Positions 6,100 to 42,200 of a DNA stretch of 64,000 nt are shown here, one piece after another. The stretch's first letter is position 1. The number at the start of each line of letters is the position of its first letter. This DNA is from a virus, in the IMG/VR virus record IMGVR_UViG_3300045988_119033. One strand, given 5' to 3'. The translations under genes were made by a program, and so were the position numbers. The notes beneath the pieces are model-generated. The model was given only the letters and a program-made list of their open reading frames with translations, was not told the origin of the DNA and did no database searches.

Positions 6100-6172
6100 C
6101 GAAAATTAGCATAGTGGATAATGCGGTATTCTGTAAAAATACTTTTCATTGGTTCGAATCCAATATTTTCAT
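6100..6172 (+). tRNA. tRNA, anticodon GUA (Tyr-type), class I cloverleaf with a C1:A72 mismatch
   Basis: Hand-folded. Acceptor CGAAAAT/ATTTTCA (6 of 7 pairs); D-stem GCAT/ATGC with loop AGTGGATA; anticodon stem GTATT/AATAC with loop CTGTAAA; 5-nt variable loop; T-arm ATTGG-TTCGAAT-CCAAT; discriminator T. Confidence 0.55.
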
Positions 6173-6247
6173 TTTAATCATCCGGCTCCGTTTTTCCTCT
6201 GTTTGAAATATATAAAAACTAATGAGTGGTGATGGGGTTAGTTACTT

Positions 6248-6320
6248 CGAATTTAGCTCAGATGGATAGAGCGATACTCTTTTAAAGTATAGGTCAATGG
6301 TTCAAATCCATTATTTCATT
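6248..6320 (+). ncRNA. tRNA-like element (anticodon-loop UUU, Lys-type) with a degenerate acceptor stem; possible Y-RNA-like module
   Basis: D-arm GCTC-AGATGGATA-GAGC; anticodon stem ATACT/AGTAT with loop CTTTTAA; T-arm AATGG-TTCAAAT-CCATT. The acceptor strands do not pair (at best 4 of 7). A possible closing helix joins AATGAG(T)GG at 6221-6229 with CCCTCATT at 6343-6350. Confidence 0.4.
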
Positions 6321-25418: not shown

Positions 25419-25951
25419 GTATAAGAAGGAGATTTTTTAATGCTGCGGATAATTTTGTGGGAGGATGTTATAATAAGTTATCTAATGAAGATATAAAAAG
25501 GCTTGGAGGAAAAAGACCTTATGTATGTCAGTTTAATAAAATTCATATACATATAGGGCCTGTATTAAAAGATTATGATTCCGAAGAAAGTTATATAATG
25601 TTTAATAGTGATTGGAATCATGGTGGTTATGAATCTAAGGTTTATCATCATAGCAATAATGGCATTTTTATATTAGGTGAAAACAAAATTGGTAATATAG
25701 AAGATCATATACAGGATCTAACATATTGGTACGAATATGATCCAAACATTAATGAAAATTATTGTTATTGTTATTATGAAGCTGATAACAGCGGAAATGC
25801 TATTAAGTTGAGCCGTGAGTTTGGTGATGTTTGCACTGTTTTTAATATTCCCAGTTTGAAAGTTACTACTCTTCGTGATGGCGGTTTGAGTTTCCCAGAG
25901 ATTTATATAGAAGGAGTTTGGGATTCGTTATTGTATAAGTCGGTTTTATAA
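25412..25951 (+). CDS. Hypothetical protein with an RRRFF N-terminal motif (start uncertain: GTG 25412, TTG 25415 or ATA 25421)
   Basis: ORF overlapping the stop of the giant gene. The codon at 25421-25423 is ATA where homologous ORFs 4934 and 42978 have ATG (ATAAGAAGGAGATTTTTT versus ATGAGAAGAAGGTTTGAG). Confidence 0.4.
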   Translation: MLSIRRRFFNAADNFVGGCYNKLSNEDIKRLGGKRPYVCQFNKIHIHIGPVLKDYDSEESYIMFNSDWNHGGYESKVYHHSNNGIFILGENKIGNIEDHIQDLTYWYEYDPNINENYCYCYYEADNSGNAIKLSREFGDVCTVFNIPSLKVTTLRDGGLSFPEIYIEGVWDSLLYKSVL

Positions 25952-25977: not shown

Positions 25978-28236
25978 ATGGGTGTCAAATGTCAGATAGA
26001 AAAAAAGGAAAATGAAATAAAACGGGTTAAGGCTCCTAACGGGGAGCCTTCCGTTCTTTACGAAAGTGCTTTAAAGGTATTAGGAAACAGTGAGCGGGCT
26101 CTTCAGGTATGGGCTAAGGCTTACACTCCTGGTTTTTTGTCGTATTACGGTCATTGGAATAACCCGGCTCCAGGGGAGATGTTTAATACCGATCCCAATG
26201 GCGAACCTCTTTTAGAAGACGTGCTGTCGTATATGAAGCGTCAGACTTATTTTGCTGATCCTTTAACGGCTCAGGACATTAAGGATGTAAGGGATTTCCT
26301 TTTGTCTACTCATTATTTTTTCAATGCGTCTTCATTGTCTAATGCTATCCTCTTCGATTTTTATGTAGATGGCAGTTTGATACTGAATGAGCAGAAATTA
26401 AGGAGATCCGGTTTGTATGATGAAACAGAGATAAGTCGTATCTTATCCGATCCTTCTGTTTTAAATGAGGTTTCGACTTCCATGAGAAAGTTAATAGATT
26501 GTTCTATTAACGAACATGATAGGGAAAAGGATAATTATTTTATGTCTGTTGACTATCAGTATGGTCCTATTGTTTACAAGGAGGGAGTGTTTAACCAATT
26601 TGGTAAAAAAGTGCCATATAATCCTTCTGAGCTTTATTATGCTATGCGTAAAACAGTAGCCGGCATAAAAAACTTTTCTGAATTTTCATCTGCTTTTGAA
26701 TCGTTGAGAAACTCATATCCTGAACTGGTTGAGAAATTCGTTTCTGATAAAGAATTTGCCGAATCTATGTTTGATGAGTTTTCATCTACGAATAAGATTC
26801 CGGTAATAAACATAGAAGGGGATGATATGGTAGAAGGCAAGAGAAGATCTTTGTCTAAGCTACAAGATCTTTCTTATTACAATTCCGGCAAAATAGAGTT
26901 CCTAAGAGCTCGTATATCAGCTTATTTACATAGGGTTAATGCCGACACCGAATCCGATTTAAGAAGCATGATATGGGATATAGAAGAGGCTTGTACGTGG
27001 TTTGGCATAGATATAATAGGGACATCGGAAACTTATGATGGCACAGAAGAATCTTTGAATAAGATAGATAATTTGATGCTGGATCTTGATATTTATGTGG
27101 CCAGGCACAATGATGTAAATTATGCTCCTACGTTGGCATCTTCTATTGATGATGTTCTTGGTGATAGTACAGACTATTATTTTGGATTATTGCCGGAGTA
27201 TATGGATAATTTGAATATCGTTTATTCTGAATCCAATATAGACCCAGTAGAAGCATTTGAGAAACATTCATTGCTTAAGGTAGGAGATAATCTATATCAA
27301 AGGATCAGCAAAGATGATCTTAACGAGATGTATCAAATATCAACAGTATTAGCCAAGCACAACCTAACTCATTTTTCTACTAAAATATATCCTGAATCTT
27401 GTTTTAAGAACGGCGTTTTGGATAAAGAGAAAGTACGGAACGTAGATAATAATACGCTCATGGATTCCATTAAAAAATACGTCAGATCGTTCATGGATTC
27501 TCAAAACACAGAGGACATGATAATGACCAGGATGGCGTTTGGGCACCCGGCGGTACTTGACATTTCTTACGCGGATATGGATCGGGAGTATAGTCGATAC
27601 ATGAACAAAAAACAAGATAGCGAAAACCCATTATCCTTATTCGATTTATACCAATCTTACCTTGACAACAAACTCCATAAAACAAAATTATATGATAATG
27701 CCTATAAGTATCTTGACTTCAAACCTGGTCCATCTTTGGGCCTTATTTCTGATGATCCTGATATTCTGAAATCAATAGAATTATCTTTATCTGGAAAAGA
27801 CAGGTTGATGTTGTTTGATTATAGCATGACCAGCACCGATCCTTCTTTATCAAAATTGTTTTATTTGGATAGGTATGACCCTTCGTATGCCGATAATGAT
27901 TTTGAACATTATTTTTACACCAGGCACCCGTATCTGTTAAAAGAAAAATCGGGTCCTAATATCGTAGAGCAAGATGGTGTTATAACAGCCGAAGGTATTT
28001 ATGATAATTTTATAAGAGTAGGTAATAAGATATGGTCTAAAGTAAGCGAAAGTAGTTCCGGCTCTATCTACCAAAATCTGACAGGAACCGAATCGGAGGT
28101 GAAATACGATTCTACTCAGAAGGTTAAGACGGTAGAAACCGATTACGCTCCATACCAAAACAGATCTGGCCTGACGCAAGATATGATCGTAAGCAAGTCT
28201 GAATTGGATGATCTTAATAAATTGGAATGCAGGTAA
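25978..28236 (+). CDS. Large virion protein (752 aa), function unknown
   Basis: Long ORF followed by a terminator at 28282-28310. Confidence 0.5.
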   Translation: MGVKCQIEKKENEIKRVKAPNGEPSVLYESALKVLGNSERALQVWAKAYTPGFLSYYGHWNNPAPGEMFNTDPNGEPLLEDVLSYMKRQTYFADPLTAQDIKDVRDFLLSTHYFFNASSLSNAILFDFYVDGSLILNEQKLRRSGLYDETEISRILSDPSVLNEVSTSMRKLIDCSINEHDREKDNYFMSVDYQYGPIVYKEGVFNQFGKKVPYNPSELYYAMRKTVAGIKNFSEFSSAFESLRNSYPELVEKFVSDKEFAESMFDEFSSTNKIPVINIEGDDMVEGKRRSLSKLQDLSYYNSGKIEFLRARISAYLHRVNADTESDLRSMIWDIEEACTWFGIDIIGTSETYDGTEESLNKIDNLMLDLDIYVARHNDVNYAPTLASSIDDVLGDSTDYYFGLLPEYMDNLNIVYSESNIDPVEAFEKHSLLKVGDNLYQRISKDDLNEMYQISTVLAKHNLTHFSTKIYPESCFKNGVLDKEKVRNVDNNTLMDSIKKYVRSFMDSQNTEDMIMTRMAFGHPAVLDISYADMDREYSRYMNKKQDSENPLSLFDLYQSYLDNKLHKTKLYDNAYKYLDFKPGPSLGLISDDPDILKSIELSLSGKDRLMLFDYSMTSTDPSLSKLFYLDRYDPSYADNDFEHYFYTRHPYLLKEKSGPNIVEQDGVITAEGIYDNFIRVGNKIWSKVSESSSGSIYQNLTGTESEVKYDSTQKVKTVETDYAPYQNRSGLTQDMIVSKSELDDLNKLECR

Positions 28237-28459: not shown

Positions 28460-28657
28460 ATGAGAATCAGTACCATCAAACGTAATAACAGCATTCATCT
28501 TATGTATAAAAACATTATGAATGATTTAGGTCAATTAAGAACTGTAGTTTCAAAATCCTATATTTATAATCTGATACGAAATCAAACCGGATTAAGTATC
28601 AGAACTATATCCCATGTCTTGAATCACACGAAAGAACAGGATACAGATTCTTTGTGA
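28460..28657 (+). CDS. Small protein (65 aa) with a LacI-type helix-turn-helix signature
   Basis: TGLSIRTISHVLNH resembles the LacI-family HTH consensus (GVSxxTVSRVLN). It sits alone in a 750-bp otherwise non-coding region that contains palindromes. Confidence 0.35.
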   Translation: MRISTIKRNNSIHLMYKNIMNDLGQLRTVVSKSYIYNLIRNQTGLSIRTISHVLNHTKEQDTDSL

Positions 28658-28740
28658 AAACCATACATTTTCATACATTTGTGTGTTCTTTAGTTTTTAG
28701 ATTTAAGTTTTTCATGGTATTAGTTTAGATTAGTGTAGAT

Positions 28741-28775
28741 CAGGGTTCGCAGTGATGCGGGCCCTGGTTTGTTTT
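28741..28775 (+). terminator. GC-rich hairpin followed by GTTTGTTTT; likely terminator of the small HTH gene
   Basis: CAGGG...CCCTG outer stem with inner CGCA/TGCG pairing, followed by a T-rich run. Confidence 0.45.
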
Positions 28776-28823
28776 ACAGTGCTTTACCCAAAATGGGAAA
28801 GGCAAAAGTTTATGATTATCAGG

Positions 28824-28846
28824 TTTTCCCCTTAAATGGGGGAAAA
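28824..28846. promoter_or_regulatory. Near-perfect 23-bp palindrome TTTTCCCC-TTAAAT-GGGGGAAAA; candidate operator
   Basis: Inverted repeat with an AT-rich centre. A related shorter CCCAAAATGGG lies at about 28786-28796. Confidence 0.4.
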
Positions 28847-28944
28847 TTAATTATTGTGTATTATACTTCCGTTTTTGCTGAAAATACTTCTCTTCTATAG
28901 GAAACAAACACACCTGTATTCCACCCTGCAATCATGATCTTTGT

Positions 28945-28990: not shown

Positions 28991-29998
28991 ATGGGTGGTG
29001 ATAAAATCGTCCTTTTAGATGGAGCCGGGGCTAACGGTGGTGGTGCAGCCACTAACGGTCTTCTTTCAATGATTCCCGGCATGTTTGCTAATTTGATAGG
29101 TGGTAATAAAATGGATCCGAATCTGGTGGCGGCTTTGATGAACGGTCGTAATAACCAGGACGGTTTCGGTGGGGCTAACGGTTGGTGGCTCTGGATAATT
29201 GTTTTGTTCTGGCTGTGGGGTGGACGCGGCTTCGGTAACGGTTTTGGAAATGGTGGTGATTGTTGCGCCAATGGTTTACCCGCTCAGTTGAATAACGATT
29301 ACGGTCGTGAGCTTCTGATGCAGGCAATTCAAGGTAATCGTAGCGCTATAGATCAGATCGCTTCTGCTTTGAACTGTTCTACTACTCAACTTCAGAACGC
29401 TATCTGCAACGTACAGGGTGCTATTGATAAAGTAGCTGGTCAGGTAGGTATGACTTCTCAGGCTGTTATCAACGCAGTTCAACAACAAGGTTGTGAAATC
29501 GGAAATCAAATCAGCTCTTGCTGCTGCAATCTGAGTTCGTTGATCAATCAAAGCACTTGCCAGACTCAGGGAATGATTACTCAGCAAGGTTTTGATAACC
29601 AGCTTCGCACGTTGGAACAAACCAATATCTTGCAGAACGGTCTCAACCAAGGTCTGGCTAACAATCGTGAGCAAGCTACAAGCCAATTCAATATCTTGTC
29701 TGCGAAACTTGACGCTCAAACCGTTATGATCAACGACAAATTCTGTCAGTTGGAAATGAGGGAGATGCAGAACACTATTGCTCAACTTCGTGAAGAAAAA
29801 GCGGCTTTGACAGCTTCGGCATTATCTCAGCAACAGACCCAGAATATCGTTGGTCAATTACGTCCTTGTCCGGTTCCTGCTTATCCCTCTTGTTCTCCTT
29901 ATCAGTCCTATACTTGGGGACAGGTATTCGGAGGAGGTTGCTGCAATAACGGATGTGGATGTAACAACGGATGTTGCAATAACAACGCTGCTGTCTGA
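28991..29998 (+). CDS. Q/N/G-rich low-complexity protein with a Trp-rich hydrophobic segment and a Cys-rich C-terminus
   Basis: GAGANGGGAATNG; the hydrophobic stretch WWLWIIVLFWLW; long Gln/Asn-rich heptad-like repeats; C-terminal GGGCCNNGCGCNNGCCNNN. The start is revised to the ATG at 28991. Antisense ORFs 29276-29785 and 29775-30431 are judged to be artefacts. Confidence 0.5.
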   Translation: MGGDKIVLLDGAGANGGGAATNGLLSMIPGMFANLIGGNKMDPNLVAALMNGRNNQDGFGGANGWWLWIIVLFWLWGGRGFGNGFGNGGDCCANGLPAQLNNDYGRELLMQAIQGNRSAIDQIASALNCSTTQLQNAICNVQGAIDKVAGQVGMTSQAVINAVQQQGCEIGNQISSCCCNLSSLINQSTCQTQGMITQQGFDNQLRTLEQTNILQNGLNQGLANNREQATSQFNILSAKLDAQTVMINDKFCQLEMREMQNTIAQLREEKAALTASALSQQQTQNIVGQLRPCPVPAYPSCSPYQSYTWGQVFGGGCCNNGCGCNNGCCNNNAAV

Positions 29999-30021
29999 TT
30001 TTATTAAGAGAGGAGGCTAAT

Positions 30022-30435
30022 ATGGCTTGTGTTTCTAAAATAGGATCGTTGTATGAGATGGTTACGAAGAATGTTATTGTCAGTACGACAAATACAATCT
30101 TCGGTATTAACCCACGGGCTTGGATCGCCCTTCCGTGTGAGGGTCTTATCCTTCTTAAGATAAGGCAAGTAGTCCCCACAGCCGGAAGTGCTCTACCGGT
30201 ACAGATTGCGGTCCCGGCAAACAGCACAGTTTCAACAGTAGGAGCCGACACCTGTTGCCCGGTTACGGGAGTGAATGTCGTGAACCCTATTAACGTAGCT
30301 GTCACGGGTGATGCTATGGTAAATGGCACAGAACGCCTTCTGTACTTCAATAAAGTTCGTGGCGTGTTAAGATTAATGGATTGCTGTGTTCCAGTAGCGG
30401 CAGCCCAGGCGTCTGAAACTAAGGTAAGCAAATGA
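30022..30435 (+). CDS. Hypothetical protein (137 aa), Val/Thr/Cys-rich
   Basis: Plus-strand ORF consistent with the flow of neighbouring genes. No domain recognised. Confidence 0.4.
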   Translation: MACVSKIGSLYEMVTKNVIVSTTNTIFGINPRAWIALPCEGLILLKIRQVVPTAGSALPVQIAVPANSTVSTVGADTCCPVTGVNVVNPINVAVTGDAMVNGTERLLYFNKVRGVLRLMDCCVPVAAAQASETKVSK

Positions 30436-30506
30436 TTTTTAGTAGGGTGATAAACCTGGTCATAGGGACTATCACCCTATTTTTCTAACAGATAAATATT
30501 TCGGTC

Positions 30507-30995
30507 ATGTTTTCAGATTTAAAGAAAGGGTTTCAGGTACATACCCTTGATACTAATACAGTACCTAAATACGAATTGGGAAGAGTGGTAGCCGTATCGG
30601 AACCAAGATACCTTCCTCCGCAGCCTGGACAATACCAGACCATGCAGACGCGCGTGGTGGATCTTACAGTGGAGCTTACAGGAGAAACCAAGACCTATAC
30701 AGTTCCCGAATCTCAGAATGTGGCTAAAGCAATGGGAATAACATTGTCTACAAGCATAGATCCTATTATGAATGAATTGAATGCTATAAAAAACACCAGT
30801 CAGGAAATAATAGATAGCGTAGATACTCATCGTGCAAAGATCGAAGCTTGTGAATCCATATTGGAAGAAGTTAACCCAGCATTTAAACAGACAAGAGAGC
30901 AAGATCGTAAAATAGCTGGTATAGAAAATAAGGTCAATGATCTTACTGATTCATTTGAAGATTTAAAGAAGTTGATTGTAGAACGTTTGAAATAA
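30507..30995 (+). CDS. Hypothetical protein (162 aa) with a C-terminal coiled-coil
   Basis: ORF with a beta-rich N-terminal half and a helical charged C-terminus. Confidence 0.45.
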   Translation: MFSDLKKGFQVHTLDTNTVPKYELGRVVAVSEPRYLPPQPGQYQTMQTRVVDLTVELTGETKTYTVPESQNVAKAMGITLSTSIDPIMNELNAIKNTSQEIIDSVDTHRAKIEACESILEEVNPAFKQTREQDRKIAGIENKVNDLTDSFEDLKKLIVERLK

Positions 30996-31002
30996 GTATA
31001 AT

Positions 31003-31374
31003 ATGATAGTATATGATTTAAATTCAGGACAAAGAGAATATCCTGGATATGACGAGATAGAAGATAGACGAGGCAGAGGTCGTAGTCGTCGTTCTGATGG
31101 GACGTACATGGGTTACGGACATGGATTCCTTCCTCCTTATGACCATTATGGTATGCATGAAAAAATGAAAGAGATGGAAGAACGTGAAAACGAGTTGGAA
31201 GAAAGAGAAAGAAGACTCGAAGAACGCGAACGCCGTCATGAAATGGAGGACCGGGAATACCGGAGGATGGGTTACGAATCTTACCCGACCGATTATTATG
31301 GAGACGACAGATACTACGGTGATGGTCCCCAGATGCGTAGAGGTAGGGGAAGAGGTCGTGGTCGTTCTTATTGA
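31003..31374 (+). CDS. RG/RGG-, Tyr- and Glu/Arg-rich low-complexity protein (123 aa)
   Basis: RGRGRSRRS ... ERERRLEERERRHE ... DYYGDDRYYGDG ... RRGRGRGRGRSY. Ends at a TGA that is in frame with ORF 31468. Confidence 0.5.
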   Translation: MIVYDLNSGQREYPGYDEIEDRRGRGRSRRSDGTYMGYGHGFLPPYDHYGMHEKMKEMEERENELEERERRLEERERRHEMEDREYRRMGYESYPTDYYGDDRYYGDGPQMRRGRGRGRGRSY

Positions 31375-31467
31375 GGAGCAGACGCAGAGGATCCAGCTTA
31401 TCAGAAATATGTAGACACTTACGGCTATCATTTCTCTAATGAACTTGCTGACGAAGCGGTTAAGAAA

Positions 31468-31761
31468 ATGGTTAACGTCGATGGATCTAAAAGGATCTGG
31501 AAGCAGTCGGAGATAAAAGATATTTTTGAAAAGTGCGGAGCGAAGAAGCCGGATAAAGCGACATGGGGCGATGTCCAATATGTCTTTGCAATGTACTATT
31601 CGGATGGCTTCCCGAAGATCTTCAAATGTGAGAACGAGCTGGTGAAAGCTACGTTAATGTATTTGAATGATCCGGATGCCCCCGAAGGAGTAGCCTTTAT
31701 AAGATGGCTTGCCGTGCAAGATTACCTCGGCGAAAAAATAAGCTGGAAGGATCTGACCTGA
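31468..31761 (+). CDS. Hypothetical protein (97 aa). Same frame as the RG-rich gene, separated from it by a single TGA and 31 sense codons
   Basis: First ATG at 31468. The in-frame upstream stretch GADAEDPAYQKYVDTYGYHFSNELADEAVKK has no start codon. Confidence 0.4.
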   Translation: MVNVDGSKRIWKQSEIKDIFEKCGAKKPDKATWGDVQYVFAMYYSDGFPKIFKCENELVKATLMYLNDPDAPEGVAFIRWLAVQDYLGEKISWKDLT

Positions 31762-31867
31762 GATCCAGACCCAAGTCCTTCCGGCGGTGCGGGAGCCATA
31801 GTAAAAAATATGATTCCCGCATTCCCGTTTTTCCCGAAAGGGAATAAAAAGAATAAAAAATATGATA

Positions 31868-31909
31868 CCGGTCGGCGGGCAATAGAATACCCGTGGCCGG
31901 TTTGTTTTT
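31868..31909 (+). terminator. GC-rich hairpin followed by a TTTGTTTTT terminator
   Basis: CCGGTCGGCGGG...CCCGTGGCCGG imperfect stem with a T-run. Confidence 0.45.
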
Positions 31910-31921
31910 ATAGCATTTTTT

Positions 31922-32104
31922 TTGGACATGAATACAGCGCATGAATCTAAGTCGAATAAGACTCTTTTGCATATAATAGGAGAACTAATAGGTGTGCCAA
32001 ATACGGTTATAGATACGGCATTGCACGATCTGAAAGACAAAATAGATAAAGATCCTCAATATAAAGACATTAAAAAATGGCTTGAGTCTTTGCCTAAGAT
32101 CTGA
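31922..32104 (+). CDS. Small hypothetical protein (60 aa)
   Basis: ORF bracketed by two terminators. Confidence 0.3.
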   Translation: MDMNTAHESKSNKTLLHIIGELIGVPNTVIDTALHDLKDKIDKDPQYKDIKKWLESLPKI

Positions 32105-32125
32105 CTATGTTTTATGCTTGATACC

Positions 32126-32160
32126 AAACCCGATATACTTTAACGTATCGGGTTTTTATT
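32126..32160 (+). terminator. Rho-independent terminator
   Basis: 10-bp stem AAACCCGATA/TATCGGGTTT, followed by TTTATTTT. Confidence 0.65.
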
Positions 32161-32234
32161 TTAATATACATTGTATTATTTTAAATCAAATTGATTTATA
32201 TATATCTTACTTTTGTTGAAAAAAATAAGATATA

Positions 32235-32461
32235 TGGAAAATAAAGAAGATTACATTGGGTACGAAGATCAAGAGCTGTGTAACCAATATTACAAAGAGG
32301 CGGAGGCCATAAGACAAAAGCAGGACTGGCCTCGGCTTAGGGCTGTCGCTGCTCCGGCAAAGGGAACGCCATCGCCCGGCTGGGGTCAGCTTGGACGTGG
32401 AAACGATGTCCGTGTTAAGTACGTTAGCATCAATTCGGGATTGGGAGGAGACAGGTTATGA
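32235..32461 (+). CDS. Small hypothetical protein (75 aa from the revised start)
   Basis: A -7-like box TACTTTTG at 32203-32210 favours the ATG at 32235 over the one at 32213. The stop overlaps the next start (ATGA). Confidence 0.4.
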
Positions 32462-32676
32462 CAGTAGAAGAATTGGCTAACAAAAGATACGGTGGTGAGT
32501 TTGTTTTCATGTTTGGTCATCTTGAAGGTAGAACAAGATTCGTTTTTGAATGCTTTGATCCCAGGCCTGATCACGAAGGTAAAAATACCTATATGGTTTC
32601 TTATTTTGAGAAGGAACTTCATAGAAGAGATGTGGTAGATGTACCGTATTATATGAATGTTTCAGCGAAATCATGA
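32458..32676 (+). CDS. Small hypothetical protein (72 aa)
   Basis: Translationally coupled (ATGA overlaps at both ends). Confidence 0.45.
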   Translation: MTVEELANKRYGGEFVFMFGHLEGRTRFVFECFDPRPDHEGKNTYMVSYFEKELHRRDVVDVPYYMNVSAKS

Positions 32677-32876
32677 AAACACTACTTTTAAACGTACCTT
32701 CTTTCTCTGGTAAGATAGTTTCTCCTACCTGGATTAAAGCCGTAAGAGATTTCCAATCCAGATCGAAGGCAGAAAGAGACTCGTATTGTTCGATTTATGG
32801 ATGCACAGGAGGGTGTAACTTGTGTGATGATATAAGTAAATATAGGATTTCAGAACAATTAAAATATTATAGATAA
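32673..32876 (+). CDS. Small Cys-containing hypothetical protein (67 aa)
   Basis: Overlapping-stop coupling with its neighbours. Confidence 0.45.
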   Translation: MKTLLLNVPSFSGKIVSPTWIKAVRDFQSRSKAERDSYCSIYGCTGGCNLCDDISKYRISEQLKYYR

Positions 32877-32877
32877 T

Positions 32878-33513
32878 ATGGTTAGAATCGCATATTTCGG
32901 AACCAATGGCTGCCCTGGTCATCACGTTATTCCAATACGAGGTAAATTTACGGAAGAGGATGTTAAGGTAATAGAATCTGTAGATTGTGATGATTTCTAT
33001 AAGGTGTTTGATGTCATGCGTTTTAAGATAGCTGAGTTTAAAGGATGGACGATATTGGGAATCCCGGCAAGCTTAGACGATCATAGACCTGGAAGCAAAA
33101 CCGTTATCTTCATAGAGGGTAAAGCTAACGAAGCTGACTTTATGGAAGTCATACAAGAGTATTCTTTTCTTAAAAATAAGGTAAAGAAACTTGCCGAATT
33201 GTATCATGATGGAGAATGGCTTGCGACTGGTAAATTGAATCAAGATCCGCCTACTAACGAGGAGCGGTTTCAATTTACGTTAGACAAGGATGATATTATT
33301 AACATGATTAGGGGAGTCGATTTAGATCCTTATTCTGATGTGGCGAATGAAATGGAGAAAATTGGATTGGGGAAATCATCTGATTCTTCATATGATGGTC
33401 CCATATGGTCTTGGTTTGCTAACAAAGTAGATCTTTTGCAGAAGAATAATGTATGGGATGTTTTTTCTGCTAAGTTCTTATGGGATTTGTATTGTAGGAT
33501 AAAGAAAGTATAG
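32878..33513 (+). CDS. Hypothetical protein (211 aa)
   Basis: ORF starting 2 nt after the upstream stop. No domain recognised. Confidence 0.5.
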   Translation: MVRIAYFGTNGCPGHHVIPIRGKFTEEDVKVIESVDCDDFYKVFDVMRFKIAEFKGWTILGIPASLDDHRPGSKTVIFIEGKANEADFMEVIQEYSFLKNKVKKLAELYHDGEWLATGKLNQDPPTNEERFQFTLDKDDIINMIRGVDLDPYSDVANEMEKIGLGKSSDSSYDGPIWSWFANKVDLLQKNNVWDVFSAKFLWDLYCRIKKV

Positions 33514-33524
33514 TAACAATTAAT

Positions 33525-34295
33525 TTGAAACAAATTATGGAATTAAAAGATTTTAAAGATGTAGTTAGAGCAATGACAAAAGAAGAGTTCGAATCAGCAA
33601 TCAACGAAGATATTAAATTCGTTGAAAGATTTAAGCATTTTTTTAAACATGATGATGTTGCGAGGATAATAGAACACGTAAAGTCAGTGTTAGAAGCATC
33701 AGTGGACTACTGCTATCCGAATCATCCTGAACCTAAAGCAGAACCTGGAGACATGGGAGAGGTTTCTGATGGATACCATACTTTCAATGAATTGTATCGG
33801 TACCGCATGTTGTATAACGCCGCCTTTTTTAATCTATTAGCCAGAAATGGACAGGTTGAAGTTTGCAAATCAAGAAAGCACAGCGATGGAGAAAAATGTT
33901 TCGGTTCTGATGACTGGTTTATTGTGATGGCGATCCTGCCTACCGGTCAGGTATCTAATCACTATAAAAGCAAATACTGGGATTTGTTTGATGTTCCTGA
34001 AAGAGAAACCGCTTTCGAATACGATGGCCATACACCAAATGAAGCTGCTGATAGGATAGAAAAGTACCTTAAGTTGCCTTGTTACGGTATGACGTTTGAA
34101 AAGGCTTTGGAATCACTCAAATTGGGTCACAAGATAAAGAGAACTGATTGGGGTGGAAAGTATATCCAGATGTTTGTTTCGTATTCTAACATAATTTTAT
34201 TAATGGTAGATACAGATCAAAAGTCGACAACAGAATGGATCCCTTCTTATAACGATATAGTGTCTAACGACTGGATAGTATTACAATTACAATGA
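33525..34295 (+). CDS. Two-domain protein: unknown N-terminal domain plus a C-terminal DUF2829-like domain
   Basis: The C-terminus MTFEKALESLKLGHKIKRTDWGGKYI ... WIPSYNDIVSNDWIVLQ fits the remembered DUF2829 pattern (MxFxEALxxLKxGKKVxRxGWxGK ... W.P...DLL..DW). Confidence 0.5.
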   Translation: MKQIMELKDFKDVVRAMTKEEFESAINEDIKFVERFKHFFKHDDVARIIEHVKSVLEASVDYCYPNHPEPKAEPGDMGEVSDGYHTFNELYRYRMLYNAAFFNLLARNGQVEVCKSRKHSDGEKCFGSDDWFIVMAILPTGQVSNHYKSKYWDLFDVPERETAFEYDGHTPNEAADRIEKYLKLPCYGMTFEKALESLKLGHKIKRTDWGGKYIQMFVSYSNIILLMVDTDQKSTTEWIPSYNDIVSNDWIVLQLQ

Positions 34296-34567
34296 GTTTA
34301 TTTGTATGTTCAAAGTGTGGCTGTATAGATAATACAGCCACATCATGTTACTGGGCTCTTATAAGACCTTGTAAGAATCGTATTTACGATAAGTCGCTAA
34401 AGGGATATGAAGGCAAGCCTCTTTGTTCTGAATGTGCCGCTATTGAATATAGTAAGGGAGACGAAGTGGTGGTAGTTCCTGGAACGTGGCACGGTAAGTT
34501 CAAGAAAGAATGGCCTACTGAAGAAGAAAAGAAGCATATTGGTAAAAATGGTATTTTAAATTATTGA
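34292..34567 (+). CDS. Zinc-ribbon protein (91 aa)
   Basis: CxxC ... C ... C and CxxC spacing. Start overlaps the upstream stop. Confidence 0.45.
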   Translation: MSLFVCSKCGCIDNTATSCYWALIRPCKNRIYDKSLKGYEGKPLCSECAAIEYSKGDEVVVVPGTWHGKFKKEWPTEEEKKHIGKNGILNY

Positions 34568-34570
34568 TTT

Positions 34571-34876
34571 ATGTGTGATAAGGAAATTGTTATATGCGCA
34601 GCTATCTGGGTTCAAGATTACAAGAATAAGCCTCACGGTCCAATAAATATACCATCCGGAACCGTATTTTGTGGATTGAGACATTGTTCTATCATTTCTC
34701 AGTTTGCAGCTTATGGTATTGCCCATAAAAACCGTAGTATTCAAGGATTTTTGACAAGCAAGAACCGGTTTCTAACAAGAGAGGAAGCATCTGAACTTGT
34801 TAGAAACAATAATCAAGAAATGGTAGTAGATAGGAATGCCATTAGAGAACAATTGTATTCGGAAGATTTATATTAA
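34571..34876 (+). CDS. Hypothetical protein (101 aa)
   Basis: ORF in the coupled operon. Confidence 0.45.
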   Translation: MCDKEIVICAAIWVQDYKNKPHGPINIPSGTVFCGLRHCSIISQFAAYGIAHKNRSIQGFLTSKNRFLTREEASELVRNNNQEMVVDRNAIREQLYSEDLY

Positions 34877-34892
34877 CTAAAAACAAAATAAT

Positions 34893-35249
34893 ATGGGATT
34901 TAGAATCAGAAAGTCAATCTTTTATGATATGATGGACGGCAATCAGTTAGAGTACGAATCTGACAACAAGAATTTAGATCATATCACATTTAAAGGTGAT
35001 GGCAAAGAATCTTTTTCATTTAACAGAGTTCTTGTTGAAAATTTAATTGAGACATTTGAGACCATGCAGGATATATACTCCGATAATTATAGGCTTAAGG
35101 TTTATACTGGTAATTGCATAATTCAATTGAACGCAAATCCAAAGGACCCCAGTAAATCCTTTTTTGACGTATATGATAGAGATGAGATGAAATTGATATA
35201 CGGAATAAAGATCAGTATTCTGAAAGAAATGTTTGGCATATGCATATGA
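34893..35249 (+). CDS. Hypothetical protein (118 aa)
   Basis: ORF in the operon. Confidence 0.45.
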   Translation: MGFRIRKSIFYDMMDGNQLEYESDNKNLDHITFKGDGKESFSFNRVLVENLIETFETMQDIYSDNYRLKVYTGNCIIQLNANPKDPSKSFFDVYDRDEMKLIYGIKISILKEMFGICI

Positions 35250-35569
35250 TTACTAAACAAGATATACAAGCAGCAGCATCGTATATTTTCCGAAGCAGTT
35301 TTGTCTCAGAAAACCAGGCAAGGAAAGTAACGATAAGAGCCGGTAATAAAGCTACCAAGAACCTTGTCAAGACCTTCAGAGGAAAGTTGTTCAAGAAGGC
35401 TTTTGGAAGAGCTCGTAGAGGAAAGGATATCAGTTCTTTTGAAAGACAAGAAAAAGAAAGTGGTTTTAATTTCCTTTACAATCTTAATAATGGTCGTATG
35501 CGAAGCGGTCATATTATAATAGACGGAATTGGTCTGTTTAAACAAATAATCTATGAAGTTCAACATTAA
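35240..35569 (+). CDS. Basic hypothetical protein (109 aa)
   Basis: Lys/Arg-rich ORF overlapping its neighbours. Confidence 0.4.
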   Translation: MHMITKQDIQAAASYIFRSSFVSENQARKVTIRAGNKATKNLVKTFRGKLFKKAFGRARRGKDISSFERQEKESGFNFLYNLNNGRMRSGHIIIDGIGLFKQIIYEVQH

Positions 35570-35735
35570 AGGTAAAAAAGCTGATATTCGTTTAGGCAGA
35601 GGTCTGGCGAATCAGATTAAAATAAACAAAACCATCCCAACGTCTCATAAACCAAAAGAAGAACGTAGAATGATGTTTATTTGTGGTGATGATATTGCTT
35701 CTCTTATAAAGCGGTTTGAAAACGAATCAAAGTAA
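35553..35735 (+). CDS. Small basic protein (60 aa)
   Basis: ORF followed by a strong terminator. Confidence 0.3.
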   Translation: MKFNIKGKKADIRLGRGLANQIKINKTIPTSHKPKEERRMMFICGDDIASLIKRFENESK

Positions 35736-35741
35736 AAAAAG

Positions 35742-35771
35742 GTCGGACATGTATCTTGTCCGACTTTTTTT
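35742..35771 (+). terminator. Rho-independent terminator
   Basis: Stem GTCGGACA/TGTCCGAC with loop TGTATCT, followed by a T7 run. Confidence 0.7.
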
Positions 35772-35784
35772 ATATATTTGCGCT

Positions 35785-36108
35785 ATGGCAAGAGGTTATT
35801 ATTGGATACCACAAACAGATGAAACGTTAAATGGCATAAGCTATTACGTGGCTAAGGTAGTAGGAGATATCACATTTGATACCAAACGAAAAAGAATCGT
35901 ATTTCAAGCTGATAGATATTTCCCTGTAGGATCTGTTTTCCATTTTACACACAATTGCTTCAATTATATCATAACTTGCCGACTTCGCAAGCCAGGGCTT
36001 TGGTTTGAAGCCAGGAGAGAAGATTCGGGCCCTATTTGCCCTGAAGATATTGAACGTTTTGAATCGGGAAGGTTTATTCATAGAAATGGGTACAAATACA
36101 ATGCATAA
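35785..36108 (+). CDS. Hypothetical protein (107 aa from the revised start)
   Basis: The track start at 35716 lies upstream of, and would read through, the terminator hairpin; the ATG at 35785 is preferred. Confidence 0.4.
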   Translation: MARGYYWIPQTDETLNGISYYVAKVVGDITFDTKRKRIVFQADRYFPVGSVFHFTHNCFNYIITCRLRKPGLWFEARREDSGPICPEDIERFESGRFIHRNGYKYNA

Positions 36109-36159
36109 GCGTAACTTGACGATTTGCGTCAGATTATAATTTTTTTTCATATTATTTTT

Positions 36160-36198
36160 AAGCCATCAGACTGAGAAGTTAGATGGCTTAATTTTTTA
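36160..36198 (+). terminator. Rho-independent terminator closing the small-gene island
   Basis: Stem AAGCCATC/GATGGCTT with a 14-nt loop, followed by AATTTTTTAT. Confidence 0.6.
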
Positions 36199-36249: not shown

Positions 36250-39200
36250 ATGGTATCAACGTGTATTATTAAAAGAGATAATAAAAAGAAAGTTGTTTCT
36301 GTCTCTACCAGATCAGGGGACAGGTCTATGTTATTCGATAAGATAGCATCTATTCCTCTTATGGAAAATAGGGAACGGGCTACTACTGTTTTTAAAACCG
36401 TATTTTCTAATAAGTTCTTAAAGGCTTTTGGTGACTGGAGAAGGAATGTGCCTATCAACAAACAGGCTTACAATAAGGTAAAATCTAACATCGGCCTTAT
36501 TCCAGAGACCTATAGAGAAAGGGTGCTGGATAAGGCTTCTAAGATGAGTAACCCTATTCTTGTGTCGAAATCAGATGCACCTTATGGGATTCAAGAATCA
36601 GGCTTTGGATTCTATAGCCAAGATCTGGGTGATAATATTATGTTGGTGGATGCTATGGTTCCGTCAAGTATCTCCGTGCCGGAAGAACCAGGAATAGACT
36701 CAGGGCAGTATCTACAAGATGCTATATCTTCGGACTTCACTCCCGTATCTATGGTACAGGATAATGATGTTAATTATATGGTTATAAAAGACGGTCTTAA
36801 GATATTTAGTCCAGAAGAGCTACCAGAAACAGATTCTAATCCTGTGGGTGTAACGTATCAGACTGGAGAACCTCGTTTGTTTTTTATGAATGATCGTAAT
36901 CAATTATTTGAAGATTACGGAGAAGCTCTTCGCTCTGGCGGGAATGATATCAGAATAGGATTCTTATCTGGCACCGTTCAAGAATCTGCCTGGGATGGCG
37001 TGGCAGACATTACTTACAAGGCTGGAAAGTATGTCCTTAACAACCCCAAATCTTTTATACCTGTTATGACCGCCTCTGCTTCCACTTCTTTATCAACAAA
37101 AGGTGGGATAATAAACTACCTTATAAAGAAAGGTCTTTTGTCAGGATCCAAGATATTCGATCCGGAAACAAGAAGCTATTATCTTACAGGAGAAGGACAT
37201 GCAGGACAAATTAGACTTTTCAATTCAGCCTTAGCTTATACCGAACTTCGTAATCATTTCAGTTCTGATGTTTCCATGAATGATCAAGGCATGATAACCA
37301 TAAATTCATTGGATAATAGTAAGGTGACTATGAGACTCGCCACCGGAGGAACAGAAAGAGTTAGCAAGGAGCAGATAAAGAGCGATCTTAAGTCTGGAAG
37401 ATACAATGAATTGGATGCTAAATACGATCACTTTGATGCGCTTGTAGTTTCATTTATATTAGAAGACAATGATCTTTATGCTGATACTAAAGCTAAGATA
37501 GTATCGGATTATAGCCAAGAGGAACGTAATCAACGAAATTCTATTGTTGAGATACTGAAAACGCTGGGCGTTAGTGTCGTTGGCATGACCGATTATATAG
37601 AGAAGTACCAAACTAAATACGGACACGAACCTTCTGCTAAAGCATTGGCGGATATTGCCAATAACGTAATAGCAGTCGGTGAAGATGCTACTTTGTCTGA
37701 CTTAGTAGAAGAAACAGCCCACTTCCTTGTAGAGGCGTACAGAGATCAGAATGCTGTTGAATCTGTTTTGCAAGACGTAGAAGGCACTGAAGAATGGAAT
37801 CAGTATGCAAATCAGTATTATAATACATACGGTAAGGTATATGAAGGAACTGAACTTGACAATGTAGTTAGGAAAGAAATTCTTGGAAAGATCCTTGCCA
37901 GGGAGATGCAGGACAGAACGGCGCCCATAGAGCCCACCTCCTTCCTGGGACGCGTCCGGCAGCTTCTCTCTGGAATCGTAAACTGGCTTAAATCAGCTTT
38001 ATCTACCCAAAGACAAGATTTGAATAACGTTATTAAAAACATTCGTGATCTTGCTATTACCGACATAGATAAAGGATTTGATACTTCTCTTTTAAAGGAT
38101 AATGATTTTACATTATACTCTCTTTCCTCTATGAACAAGAACAAGTTTCTTGAGTCTAAGATCAGGGCATTGAGAAAAACATTGAGAGACTTACGTCAGA
38201 TAAGCTCTGATAGGGCTGTAACTACATCTATGACCCTTGCTCAACTTAAGACCATAGAAGATAAGATAAATAAGGTAGAGACCGAAATAGACAAAAATGA
38301 GATGGCGGCTGCCATGAATAGCATGATCTCCACAGCCGAAGCTCAGGTCAGATACTTAAGCAATGTAGTAAATACTATCCTTCATGGTGATACCAAAGAC
38401 GGTAAACTTCATTTCAATACCAATGATCGAAAGAACGTAGATATTATCAACAATCAGGTTCTTCCGATCATGAACGATCTTCGAGGATATATCCGTAACA
38501 GAAGTACCGAATTTGACGAACGTGAAAAGCAAGATTATACAAATAGGATCAATACCGTCATTGCCGACATCAATGGTATTCAGTCTGATATTAAATCAGT
38601 ACAAGATCTTGATGAAAGTACGTTGCTTGACAAGTTAATGAACGAACTTCATGTGCCGGCAGATAAGGTAAAGAAAGTAAAAGAGTTCTTTGATAAAGTC
38701 CAACACGATGTGTCCTGGATAAGTAGGTGGTTTGGTATATTAGAACATTCTTCCAGCCCGTTTAATAACGCTCTTGGAGCTATGATTGCCAAAGACAATT
38801 ATAATGCGATGGTGAATGCCCAGCCAGCCATATCCGACTTCCTGGCATATGCGAAAAAACATGGTTTCAATAAATCTGAATTTGAAAAACTGCTTCAGAA
38901 AGTAGACGGCAAGACTTCTAATTATCTTCGTAGTGCTCTTGATATGGCTAAATACGATCGTAATAAGAAGCTGGCGCAGATGCGAGCGTTTGCAACTGCC
39001 ATGAACATAGAGATATCAGAAGAAGAAATCAATGATGTGGTTGACAATAACCGTAATTATGTGTTTAAAAGAGAAGTAGTTGACAAGGACGGAAATACGG
39101 TTACTGAGAACGCTAAATTCAAACCTTCTTCTGATAGGGTTAATACCGACATCTTTACCATCGAGCAGGAAAGGATTTATACAGAACAGATGGAGAAGTG

Positions 39201-42200
39201 GGATGCTGAAAATTCAGAACTGGAATTTAGTGAAAGTTATGCCACAAGAATGGAATCCATATACAAAAAGGCTGAAGAAGAATTGGGGTATCCGGTTTCT
39301 CAAACAACTAAAGAATATCTTAATGCTCTTTCCCGGCAAAAACGGATATTGAGGCAACCTTTTATTGATAGCAATGGTAATTTTGATGAAGTTGCTTACT
39401 TCAAGAGCAGTAATTATGAAGAAGAAGGACTGCTTCGTAAACAACGTAAGGAAGCAGCTTCAGAATACATATATGTAGGAACCAGAAGAGTCGATAAAAC
39501 CGGTGATCAACTCAAGATGGCTAAAGAAATACAAGCTATAAATGAAGTATGGAGAAAAGAATCAAATAATGTTACTAATGCCGTATCAGAATCATTTTTG
39601 GAAAGATTGAGAACGATTCAGCGTGAGTCTGGAGGGGAGGCTGCACTGAGAACGCTTATGTTAGGAGGACACCTGGCTTTTAATGATCAGTTTTGGAATG
39701 ATATAGAGTCAGATCAGTCGGCACGCACCGAATCAAACAACAAGGCTTCGTATCTTAAAATGGCGCATGATATCATTAATTCTACGACAAGTGATAGAGA
39801 TGCGACAGACGTAGAAGCTATTGTGAAAGATATAGAAAAAAACAGGGCTATCATCAAGGAAATAATTGGGAATAACCGCGATGTGGCTGATATCGGAGAA
39901 ATCAATGAAGCGACATTTACCTCATCTGAAAGAGATGCTTTTAGGGCTGCATCTGAAGCTATTGAAACCGACTACGCTATTTTAATAGATTATGCTAAGA
40001 TGGTGGGTCTTGAAGATATTGATAAATACCTTACTAAAAGCAGTAAGGCTGAAAACGAAGTCAATCAATCTTATTTAAATGCTCTTGCTGACTCCAAGGA
40101 AGTGGAATGGAAGTTTGTGCAACGTCATACTACGGCAAAGAAAGCAAAAAGGATTCAAGCCTTAAGGGATAAACTATTTAAGGCTGCTGATAACCGATAT
40201 TTGTTTACTGTATCTGAAACCAACTACTTGTCAGAAAAGCTTGGAATAAGCAAAGAATTAGACGGTAGAGATTTTAGGAATGCTGTCAATACTAAGATGG
40301 CCAGCTTGTTTTTAAATAACACAAGAGAATCAGGTATAGAAGAGGCTAATGCTATTGTTAATGAATTTGCCAGAAGTCAAGTCTTTTCATATTACAAACG
40401 CATGGCTCCTACCGGATATGCGGCTATGCTTGGTAAAATAGGTCGAGGTGAGATAGACGTGGCACAGATGGTTAAAGACGTACAGAACGGGACATCCACA
40501 CAAGATTATGGTATGAATATATCGTACCTGTCTTTCGACCCTGCAAGAGCGTGGGTGGCTGAATCTGAAGCTGAAAATAGCGGTCGTAACCCAGATTATG
40601 TAAAAGATCATGGGTATGGTTATCGTATGCCCAAGAAGAGCCTGTATCGTGATGAATCGTATTTCAATGACTTCGGCATTAGATATGATGCTGATGGTAA
40701 TGAGATTGCTACTAAAAACGTAGAGCAATGGAATATGATTCAAAAACTTAAGGAAATAAAAAGACAATCCCTTTCCTTATACAAAGAGCAGAGCCCCAAT
40801 TTGTATGCTATTCCACAGATATCCAAACAAGATATAGAACGTATGGAGGGATTGGGTATCAACTTCAAAAATACGGTTCGTAATTTTGTATCAGATCTCT
40901 GTCTGGACAGAGTAGACGATTCTCTATACGGTAAAACCAGACAAGGGGAAGTATATGATCCAGAAGATAGGATTAGGTCTATACCTAAATACTACATATA
41001 TGAATTAGAGAACCAAGATGACGTATCTCATGATTTTGGTTATTCTTATTCGATGCTTATGATGCAATCATCGTTATACAACGAAAAGCAGAAGTCTATA
41101 GAGCTTGCCCAAGGACTGGAGCAGATGTTACTGAATAAGCAATTTGAAGGCGGTAAGAAAGCTGAGGCAACTCAAGCATACCAGATGTTTAGAGACTTCT
41201 TTAATGACCATTATTATGGCATTAGGATGAACACCAAGAAACTTACGGTTAACATCGGTGGATACACGATAGATCTTACAAGAATTATGATGGCCGTTGA
41301 AAGGTTTATGTCGGTCATGAACTTAGCGCTGTCCCCGTTTGTGGCAGCTACCGGCGCTCTGACAGGTCATATTAACCTCATCATGGAATCTGCCGTAGGA
41401 CAATATATAAGCAAAGATTCCCTTAAATATGCATCGGCTGAGTTTTCACGTCTTGCGCCATCTTGTATAGCAGAAACCGGAGACATAGATAGAAAAAGCA
41501 AATTATATGCCATAGGTGAGAGAATGGGGATATTCAATATCCGAAATCGTATGTATGGTGCCGGATATAATAGGGTGGCCCGGACCTTAATGCGTTCACC
41601 GATGTATGCTTTTATGGAAATCATGAACTACCCTCTTGATCCGCAGGTTATGATCGCTACTATGGATAACGTTCGTTATTACAAAGGTCGGTTCTACACG
41701 TTCCAGGATTTCAAGATGGAAAAAGAACGTGGTAAAGAACAGAGCACCATAAAAAGAGAATGGGATGCATTAAAAGATCGTACTTTATGGAGTATGGCAG
41801 ATGTCGTAGACGGCAAGGTGGTTGTGAAACCAGGATCGGGTGTTACTGTTGAGGAGGTTGAAACTCAGATGGCTATAACCCGAAATCAGGTTCGTAGCCT
41901 GTCTCAGATATGTAACGGATCTTTGAATGAAGAAAACCGGACCGCCGCATCCCGCAACTGGATAGCCAGGTTCATGACTGCCCACCGAGGATGGCTGGTG
42001 CTGGCGGCTCAACGTCTGTGGAAAAGAAGGGGATTCAATTTCCAGACAATGCAAGAAGAGGAAGGGCTGTCAATTACGTTAAAGAATATGATAGCTAAAA
42101 CATTTAGCTTAGCTTCCGAGCCTGGTATGAAAAATATCATAGATGCCTGGAACGAAAATAAAGATAAGATGGGTGAGGTGGAAAAGACTAATCTTAAACG

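Follow-up and report, generated by a model that had tools for sequence, protein, structure and literature searches.

A run of small genes in an epsilon crAss-like phage as a probable composite of a conserved cassette and a variable accessory operon with a WDGH-Tad2 fusion gene

Introduction

Phage accessory and anti-defence hot spots, such as the anti-Gabija locus of SPbeta-like phages (10.1101/2023.05.01.538930), are among the closest described counterparts of the locus analysed here, a 7-kb run of small genes at positions 28991–36108 of a 64,000-nucleotide viral sequence (IMG/VR record IMGVR_UViG_3300045988_119033; this whole stretch is referred to as the window). With these hot spots the locus shares a fixed position between conserved genes, a gene content that varies among near-identical genomes and the presence of a known anti-defence family, while it differs in having one recognisable anti-defence gene, in lying within the late/virion arm behind a host-type motif, and in its heavy colonisation by IscB and TnpB. 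The stretch comes from a human-gut phage of the epsilon crAss-like group and has 90.9% identity to phage csAssE-Sib (OR575929), an epsilon crAss-like phage of ~151 kb and human stool origin that has been described as 'Epsilonunovirus' (PMC11054128).

Other described systems resemble single parts of the locus. Tad2 proteins (PF11195; SPO1 gp34.65, MoTad2 and HgmTad2, the latter identical with AcrIIA7) sequester the signals of Thoeris, CBASS or Pycsar defence, the ligand differing among family members. In PhicrAss001, Gp48 (PF21825, crAss001_48) is encoded by a small non-virion gene among the giant cargo genes gp47 and gp49, a setting like the present one; there, however, a single 63-aa (amino acid) gene stands at the strand switch (L089 15220–15411), compared with a 7-kb gene run here. 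IS200/IS605-type OMEGA elements are matched by the IscB with HEARO RNA and by the TnpB found in relatives of the phage, whereas the island in the window has none and no TnpA was seen. Lastly, the lysis cassettes of Bacteroidales phages and crassviruses contain, in eight genomes, homologues of the first three or five genes of the run, either among the holin and endolysin genes or immediately behind them. The locus is thus of a known type, a phage accessory hot spot with a Tad2-family gene, joined to an uncharacterised conserved cassette that is probably late.

Results and discussion

Three probable units in the small-gene run

We conclude that the 7-kb stretch is probably a composite of three units, namely the genes g1–g5, g7–g16 and the single gene g17. 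Relatives of g1 in IMG/VR numbered 571, from which the best 80 loci, with g1 at least 98.5% identical, were taken with 10-kb flanks, giving a population sample that spans ~21 kb and in which 74 loci are complete across the region. Among these 74 loci, g0–g17 occur in 40 presence/absence patterns, and between 2183 and 9218 bp separate the start of g1 from the following giant gene in relatives (7259 bp in the window). The aligned fraction of loci is 0.95–1.0 over 26–32.5 kb, falls to 0.5–0.85 over 32.5–35.75 kb and is 1.0 again at 35.75 kb; g0–g8 and g17 are nearly always present, whereas g9–g16 are found in 34–64 of 81 loci. Recurrent gene-sized losses concern g9 (26 loci), g10 (16), g16 (~20) and g14–g16 together (4), and many unique deletion junctions fall within genes. 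Hypervariability among related phages, which an initial annotation of the stretch had suggested looking for, is thus seen over 32.5–35.75 kb (g9–g16) and not over 28991–32200, where coverage stays at 0.95–1.0. At the conserved end, g1–g5 show 93–99% amino-acid identity in 81 close relatives, with g1, g3 and g5 at least 95% identical in nearly all of them, while the adjacent 752-aa protein is 60–70% identical in 22 loci. Homologue searches with g10 and g2 yielded many chimeric open reading frames (ORFs), including g10-Tad2, g2-DUF7841 and g2-TnpB fragments, as would be expected if deletions and fusions are frequent; a repeat common to the boundaries, which might drive cassette exchange, was looked for and not found.

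The units are also delimited by hairpins and promoter-like motifs. Terminator-like sites number 12, compared with 5.0 ± 2.4 in shuffles, and when folding energies were compared with 200 shuffles, four hairpins (28736–28771, 32126–32155, 35735–35771 and 36158–36191) beat all 200. The sites are as follows:

28736–28771, hairpin at the 5' edge, −24.7 kcal/mol, z −7.4
28822–28848, second 5'-edge hairpin, −14.7 kcal/mol, z −2.7
32126–32155, terminator hairpin 3' of g6, −14.1 kcal/mol, z −4.8
32208–32215, plus strand, −7 motif TACTTTTG before g7, opening the accessory operon
35735–35771, hairpin closing the accessory operon, 15-bp stem, −19.9 kcal/mol, z −7.0
35773–35780, plus strand, −7 motif before g17
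36158–36191, terminator 3' of g17, −17.1 kcal/mol, z −5.5

Internal and 3'-edge terminators had been described in the initial annotation, and terminator hairpins lie at 32126–32155, 35735–35771 and 36158–36191. The hairpin at 35735–35771 stands between an A-run and a U-run and is likely a bidirectional terminator of the accessory operon, while a site at 30462–30480 was not significant as a hairpin when folded against shuffles. In place of the palindromic operators that had been proposed for the 5' edge, we found two hairpins that bracket a second indel spot at ~28776–28867 and look like terminators or cassette borders; the inserts between them are a 1.1-kb Bro-N/KilAC antirepressor cassette (~25 loci) or a 0.9-kb AntA/T5orf172 cassette (~12 loci).

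A sigma-70 promoter scan gave no enrichment (30 versus 26.4 expected), and the Bacteroidetes −7 motif TAnnTTTG was used in its place. Overall this motif is not enriched either (55 versus 66); of its 27 plus-strand copies, six lie 3–45 nt upstream of gene starts compared with 0.83 expected, an enrichment that is partly circular, as two start codons were chosen with the motif in view. TAnnTTTG precedes g7, g17 and also the flanking virion genes, at a distance of 5–24 nt. A host-takeover role finds no support: the promoter-like motifs within the island belong to the same host type as those preceding the virion genes.

Seventeen plus-strand ORFs of 60–335 aa, named g1–g17, fill 28991–36108, and together with the upstream gene g0 the interval 28.4–36.2 kb holds 18 plus-strand ORFs. 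They are flanked by a 752-aa gene (25978–28236) and a 2138-aa gene (36250–42666), both assigned to virion structural families by PHROGs, whose counterparts in PhicrAss001 are cargo and RNA-polymerase-associated virion proteins (PMC10172136). A tight packing of plus-strand small genes between giant virion genes had been noted before and is borne out, with 17–18 genes, while the ATGA-type overlaps described along with it hold, at four bases each, for g7/g8, g8/g9 and g11/g12, the remaining junctions lying between a 20-base overlap and a 16-base gap.

The probable accessory operon and its WDGH-Tad2 fusion gene

The variable part of the run corresponds to the second unit (g7–g16, ~32.2–35.75 kb), which would be a single accessory operon, bounded on its left by a terminator and host-type motif and on its right by a strong terminator, followed by g17 as a putative conserved single-gene unit. 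The genes from g6 onwards are:

g6, 31922–32104, plus strand, 60-aa ORF with a terminator hairpin 3' of it
g7, 32213–32461 (TTG at 32213; ATG at 32231), plus strand, 82 aa from the TTG, operon start
g8, 32458–32676, plus strand, 72 aa, ATGA overlap with g7, in 68 of 81 relatives
g9, 32673–32876, plus strand, 67 aa, one Cys cluster, variable, in 34 of 81 relatives
g10, 32878–33513, plus strand, 211 aa, lineage-specific ORFan, variable, in 38 of 81 relatives and absent from csAssE-Sib
g11, 33525–34295, plus strand, 256 aa, WDGH and Tad2-like
g12, 34292–34567, plus strand, 91 aa, zinc-ribbon-like with CxxC at residues 6 and 45, phrog_11861 (E 1.4e-14)
g13, 34571–34876, plus strand, 101 aa, phrog_839, a family without assigned function
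g14, g15 and g16, 34893–35735, plus strand, overlapping variable ORFs of 118, 109 (basic) and 60 aa (basic)
g17, probably from ATG 35785 to 36108, plus strand, ~107 aa, with its own −7 motif and terminator, in 76 of 81 relatives

Over its last 68 residues g11 matches the Tad2 sponges. The protein consists of N-terminal helices, a WDGH domain (residues 78–180) and a Tad2-like DUF2829 domain (189–252), for which Pfam gave E 2.3e-36 (WDGH) and E 1.2e-11 (Tad2-like PF11195; 45.3 bits against a cut-off of 25). The DUF2829-like fusion of the initial annotation is therefore confirmed, DUF2829 now being named Tad2-like. A sequence search of the PDB returned AcrIIA7/HgmTad2, SPO1 Tad2 and MoTad2 (8kbi, 2.3e-6; 8sme, 2.3e-5), and the fold shows the N-terminal helix followed by an antiparallel sheet that is expected of Tad2, so that the Tad2-like identity is supported by four methods, including hidden Markov models, PDB sequence search and fold. 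The motif of the N-terminal helix is shared, and so is W-P-S-x-x-D...DW at the C-terminus. The ligand contacts of SPO1 Tad2 are W25, N26, W73 and D79, plus S76, T78 and H71; W25, W73, D79 and S76 correspond to W209, W238, D244 and S241 of g11, of which W209, W238 and D244 do not vary among 36 homologues, while N26, T78 and H71 are replaced by Gly, Asn and Thr. Unlike the published sponges, which were tested as short stand-alone proteins, g11 carries the extra N-terminal helices and WDGH, and its Tad2 part has shorter middle loops.

By analogy with the solved Tad2 proteins, g11 would most likely bind and sequester a nucleotide immune signal of the Thoeris, CBASS or Pycsar type, blunting abortive-infection defence. 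Many His, Asp and Cys residues are invariant in the WDGH domain, for which no relative of solved structure was found. Homologues of g11 number 2371, with the WDGH plus Tad2 architecture in most of the 120 matches listed; some relatives carry Bro-N in front, or crAss001_48 between WDGH and the Tad2-like domain, a further likeness to PhicrAss001 Gp48, although g11 itself is without that domain. The crAss001_48 insertion (PF21825) was seen in P0188, P0187 and P0193. Within the island g11 is the most divergent gene, no relative exceeding 90% identity.

For the remaining operon genes, searches of Pfam, PHROGs, NCBIfam, PADLOC and the PDB gave no functional assignment. A PADLOC defence-system search with g7–g17 had no matches, g14–g16 and g17 had no family matches, PDB sequence searches with g10 and g13 were empty, and NCBIfam was uninformative for all 18 proteins. 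Homologues of g10 are confined to this lineage and many are chimeric with g11, so that no deep alignment was obtained. The basic small proteins mentioned in the initial annotation are g15 and g16; its several zinc ribbons reduce to g12, the only gene with two CxxC pairs, next to the single Cys cluster of g9.

Mobile elements are a second feature of this part in relatives, which carry IscB (RRXRR and HNH domains) with a full-length HEARO omega RNA just upstream as well as three TnpB families. The IscB and HEARO element occurs in 17 of 81 loci (for example L030 14776–16285 and L079 14142–14352; window equivalent ~32460–34570) and in every case stops immediately before g13 (window 34570), with one fixed and one sliding junction. 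At least eight left junctions were seen, each with a different leftward deletion of g8–g12, and the sequence at the guide position of the omega RNA differs; the IscB junctions form a one-sided deletion series, and g12 is gone wherever the element is present. About 15 relatives carry a 1.35-kb insert at ~31980–32060 that in size and place resembles the TnpB ORFs of cluster 43/39. The window also has a TnpB of its own (OrfB_IS605 plus Cas12f1-like TNB) at 45300–46451 on the plus strand, in a 1.27-kb segment that csAssE-Sib is without.

Taken as a whole, g9–g16 would constitute a dispensable, recombination-prone cargo bay in which genes are lost, swapped and fused and in or beside which IscB/omega-RNA and TnpB elements land. 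The best-surviving alternative, possible in our view if rather unlikely, holds that this variable 3' part is a deletion-tolerant junkyard of non-essential ORFans and selfish elements (IscB, TnpB) that have no joint role in counter-defence and among which the Tad2-like domain is incidental. Nine of the ten operon genes are indeed without functional assignment, with only g12 and g13 matching a PHROG, many junctions lie inside genes and make chimeras, and selfish RNA-guided nucleases have built up at this and other sites of the genome. However, the recurrent, gene-sized presence or absence of g9, g10 and g16, together with ORFs that are intact at 80–95% identity, argues that operon genes are maintained when present, and the 2371 homologues of g11, most of those listed having the WDGH and Tad2 architecture, and its dozens of invariant residues likewise speak against an incidental domain. 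Read as an accessory operon, the locus delimits 3.3 kb of freely exchangeable cargo, a natural place to seek counter-defence genes against Bacteroidales immunity, with the WDGH-Tad2 fusion as a concrete candidate.

The conserved cassette g1–g5

The first unit (28991–31761) would be a conserved late cassette and not a counter-defence locus. It comprises:

g1, 28991–29998, plus strand, 335 aa, first cassette gene, phrog_16490 (E 6e-44)
g2, 30022–30435, plus strand, 137 aa, beta-sandwich with invariant Cys-Cys pairs, second cassette gene
g3, 30507–30995, plus strand, 162 aa, N-terminal domain followed by a C-terminal coiled coil, phrog_28898 (E 5e-19)
g4, 31003–31374, plus strand, 123 aa, Arg/Gly- and Glu-rich, low complexity, fourth cassette position
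g5, 31468–31761, plus strand, 97 aa, DUF7841 (PF25223, E 1.5e-9), fifth cassette gene

The Q/N-rich Trp/Cys protein and the RG-rich protein that had been picked out initially are g1 and g4. The former contains 22% Gln plus Asn and 18 Cys, and has an N-terminus rich in Gly, followed by a hydrophobic segment rich in Trp (WWLWIIVLFWLW), a coiled-coil region with many Cys residues and a tail rich in Cys and Gly; the Trp-rich run of 12 residues (~residues 68–80) is conserved, and an invariant INDKFCQLEMREMQN motif lies in the Cys-rich helical region. Its family forms 1003 clusters at 50% identity (E <= 1e-3), and a PDB sequence search with g1 was empty. The fold match of g2 is weak and was built on a shallow alignment, and the Pfam matches of g3 are of coiled-coil type only. 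Our literature searches on csAssE-Sib, WDGH, C3_41T2LP and DUF7841/DUF6808 found nothing.

Homologues of g1 occur in Steigviridae (cr116_1), in Suoliviridae (cr1_1, cr10_1, cr52_1 and cr109_1), in the cultured Bacteroides phage C3_41T2LP and in Bacteroidales genomes. Wherever tested, g3 homologues keep the cassette order, and so do those of g2 except in cr116_1. In all six phage records an annotated holin/pholin, LysB/FtsL-like protein or transpeptidase/metallopeptidase lies within ~3 kb, and g1–g3 or g1–g5 adjoins holin/endolysin genes in eight other genomes, with no such adjacency in the window or in the distant epsilon-like contig L090. The latter (g2 64% identity) carries the block g1-g2-g3 followed by a 94-aa gene and a DUF7841 gene, has none of g6–g17 and differs in its neighbourhood. 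Two bacterial loci, on a 1.2-Mb scaffold of Alistipes putredinis DSM 17216 (L105) and a 147-kb contig of Parabacteroides segnis BX2 (L097), share an order of tail gene, holin (PF05105), a 134–135-aa ORF, a transmembrane/lipoprotein ORF, a small DnaA_C-like helix-turn-helix protein, g1, g2, g3, an acidic small protein and DUF7841; given the scaffold of 1.2 Mb, the former locus is probably a prophage. The 134–135-aa ORF is a Peptidase_M15_3 in P. segnis only, without Pfam match in A. putredinis. DUF7841 also takes the fifth position in L105 (E 2.6e-33) and, weakly, in L090, and proteins of g4-like composition stand at its position in L105, L097 and L090, a similarity that is compositional only, as no significant alignment was found between g4 and these positional counterparts. 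Furthermore, the g1 homologues of cr52_1 (L086 4276–5199) and cr109_1 (L087 4276–5259) each contain two in-frame TAG codons where Gln stands elsewhere, which is consistent with TAG-to-Gln recoding in these two Suoliviridae; in crass-like phages such recoding is associated with late structural and lysis genes (PMC10136315).

Based on this synteny, the products of g1–g5 may form a late-expressed, envelope- or virion-associated complex acting around lysis or particle release; for a link to lysis in particular we see the chances as about evenly balanced. The hydrophobic segment of g1 followed by a Cys-containing coiled coil loosely resembles an i-spanin, although a Gly-rich part of 65 residues precedes that segment, and in L097 and L105 a separate transmembrane/lipoprotein candidate lies between the gene at the endolysin position and the cassette. 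That the cassette is purely structural appears unlikely to us, and the same holds for the wider alternative that g1–g5, possibly along with further small genes, encode parts of the particle (for example head or tail fibres, decoration proteins or ejected cargo). Their position between virion/cargo giants, their strong conservation, the late-type recoding in some relatives and the labels 'spike protein' or 'outer capsid protein/viral fiber' on g1 homologues in deposited records would fit such a role. These labels and the beta-sandwich of g2 (a weak match) make the earlier statement that none of the genes has a structural signature doubtful for g1 and g2. The spike and fiber labels, however, probably reflect coiled-coil similarity, PHROGs gives no structural category, and in the two bacterial loci the cassette follows holin and endolysin positions and not head or tail genes. 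As for the other small genes, g9–g16 are each deleted in many otherwise intact genomes and are thus not essential particle parts.

Under the preferred reading, a five-gene cassette accompanies lysis genes in crassvirus families and Bacteroidales genomes alike. The cultured isolates in which it follows a holin-led lysis cassette (L097, with an M15 endolysin, and L105) are possible experimental systems, and it could also be studied in the cultured Bacteroides phage C3_41T2LP.

Weighing of the composite reading

Several observations count against parts of this interpretation. With respect to the sample, many of the 80 loci stem from a single metagenome project, and the excess of variation is established within the 21 kb of the population sample only; compared with csAssE-Sib alone, indels are spread across all 64 kb, and two of ~9 fall in the island. 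With respect to the operon, g11 provides an anti-defence link for only one of ten genes, it is a three-part fusion and not a stand-alone sponge of ~90 aa, and the Tad2 residue N26 is replaced by Gly. Counter-defence genes are often early genes, whereas the motifs of the operon match the type found before late virion genes. With respect to the cassette, g1–g5 adjoins no recognisable lysis gene here, the likely endolysin of csAssE-Sib lying ~34 kb away, so that the link to lysis rests on other genomes; moreover, the g1 segment, with a maximum of 1.18 on the Kyte-Doolittle scale, stays under the classical transmembrane threshold, and neither signal peptides nor lipoboxes were found in g2 and g3.

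A single anti-defence or host-takeover island covering all of 28991–36108, as first proposed, nevertheless fares far worse and is highly improbable: small, tightly packed and mostly unannotated genes, a Tad2-like gene and a second indel site at the 5' edge with antirepressor/T5orf172 cassettes in relatives would agree with it, but g1–g6 are present in ~95–100% of relatives and more conserved than the neighbouring virion genes, g1–g3 or g1–g5 stands in synteny with lysis and structural genes of eight further genomes, which is the kind of conserved synteny that the initial annotation itself had named as speaking against an island, and internal terminators and a promoter motif split the stretch into separate units. 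What stands of the proposed accessory or counter-defence locus is the part at 32.5–35.75 kb, a mosaic with a Tad2-like gene in which each gene is dispensable in some relative; g1–g6 fall outside it.

The composite reading leaves current concepts unchanged and refines the annotation of a known phage group. It would go further if g1–g5, whose g1 family alone has ~1000 clusters at 50% identity, were an unrecognised and widely conserved late machine of Bacteroidales phages tied to the lysis cassette, for example a complex for outer-envelope disruption or release unlike classical spanins, or if g11 were a 'bind and process' protein in which WDGH might act enzymatically on a signal captured by the fused Tad2 sponge; that at least one of these is true we regard as a long shot, though a serious one.

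Neighbouring genes and minor observations

Upstream of the cassette lies one further small gene:

g0, 28460–28657, plus strand, 65 aa, basic (isoelectric point 10.1), helix-turn-helix-like

It is found in 80 of 81 relatives, its homologue in csAssE-Sib carries the annotation 'lactose operon repressor', and its sole Pfam match is weak (Trp_repressor, E 0.09). No similarity was found between g0 and the small DnaA_C-like helix-turn-helix proteins upstream of the cassette in the two bacterial loci.

Raised G+C at 29–32 kb was considered as a mark of recent horizontal acquisition and dropped, because third-position G+C is raised only in g1 (0.42), g2 (0.43), g5 (0.54) and g7 (0.47), compared with 0.27–0.37 in neighbours, and because the cassette is ancient in the lineage.

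The 752-aa protein next to the run (25978–28236) occurs in two allele classes, of 60–70% and at least 90% identity. Ahead of it, a 179-aa ORF at 25412–25951 is missing or divergent in ~24 of 81 loci, and unrelated sequence takes its place in csAssE-Sib. Further upstream, right after the muzzle-protein gene, a 297-aa ORF with a glycine-rich domain (PF21722) at 4934–5827 on the plus strand lies in a segment of 878 bp that is absent from csAssE-Sib. Two tRNA genes (6100–6172 and 6247–6320) precede a gene for a Ro60-related RNA-binding protein at 6435–8069 (phrog_850), labelled 'Ro sixty-related' in csAssE-Sib and unusual inside a virion gene arm.

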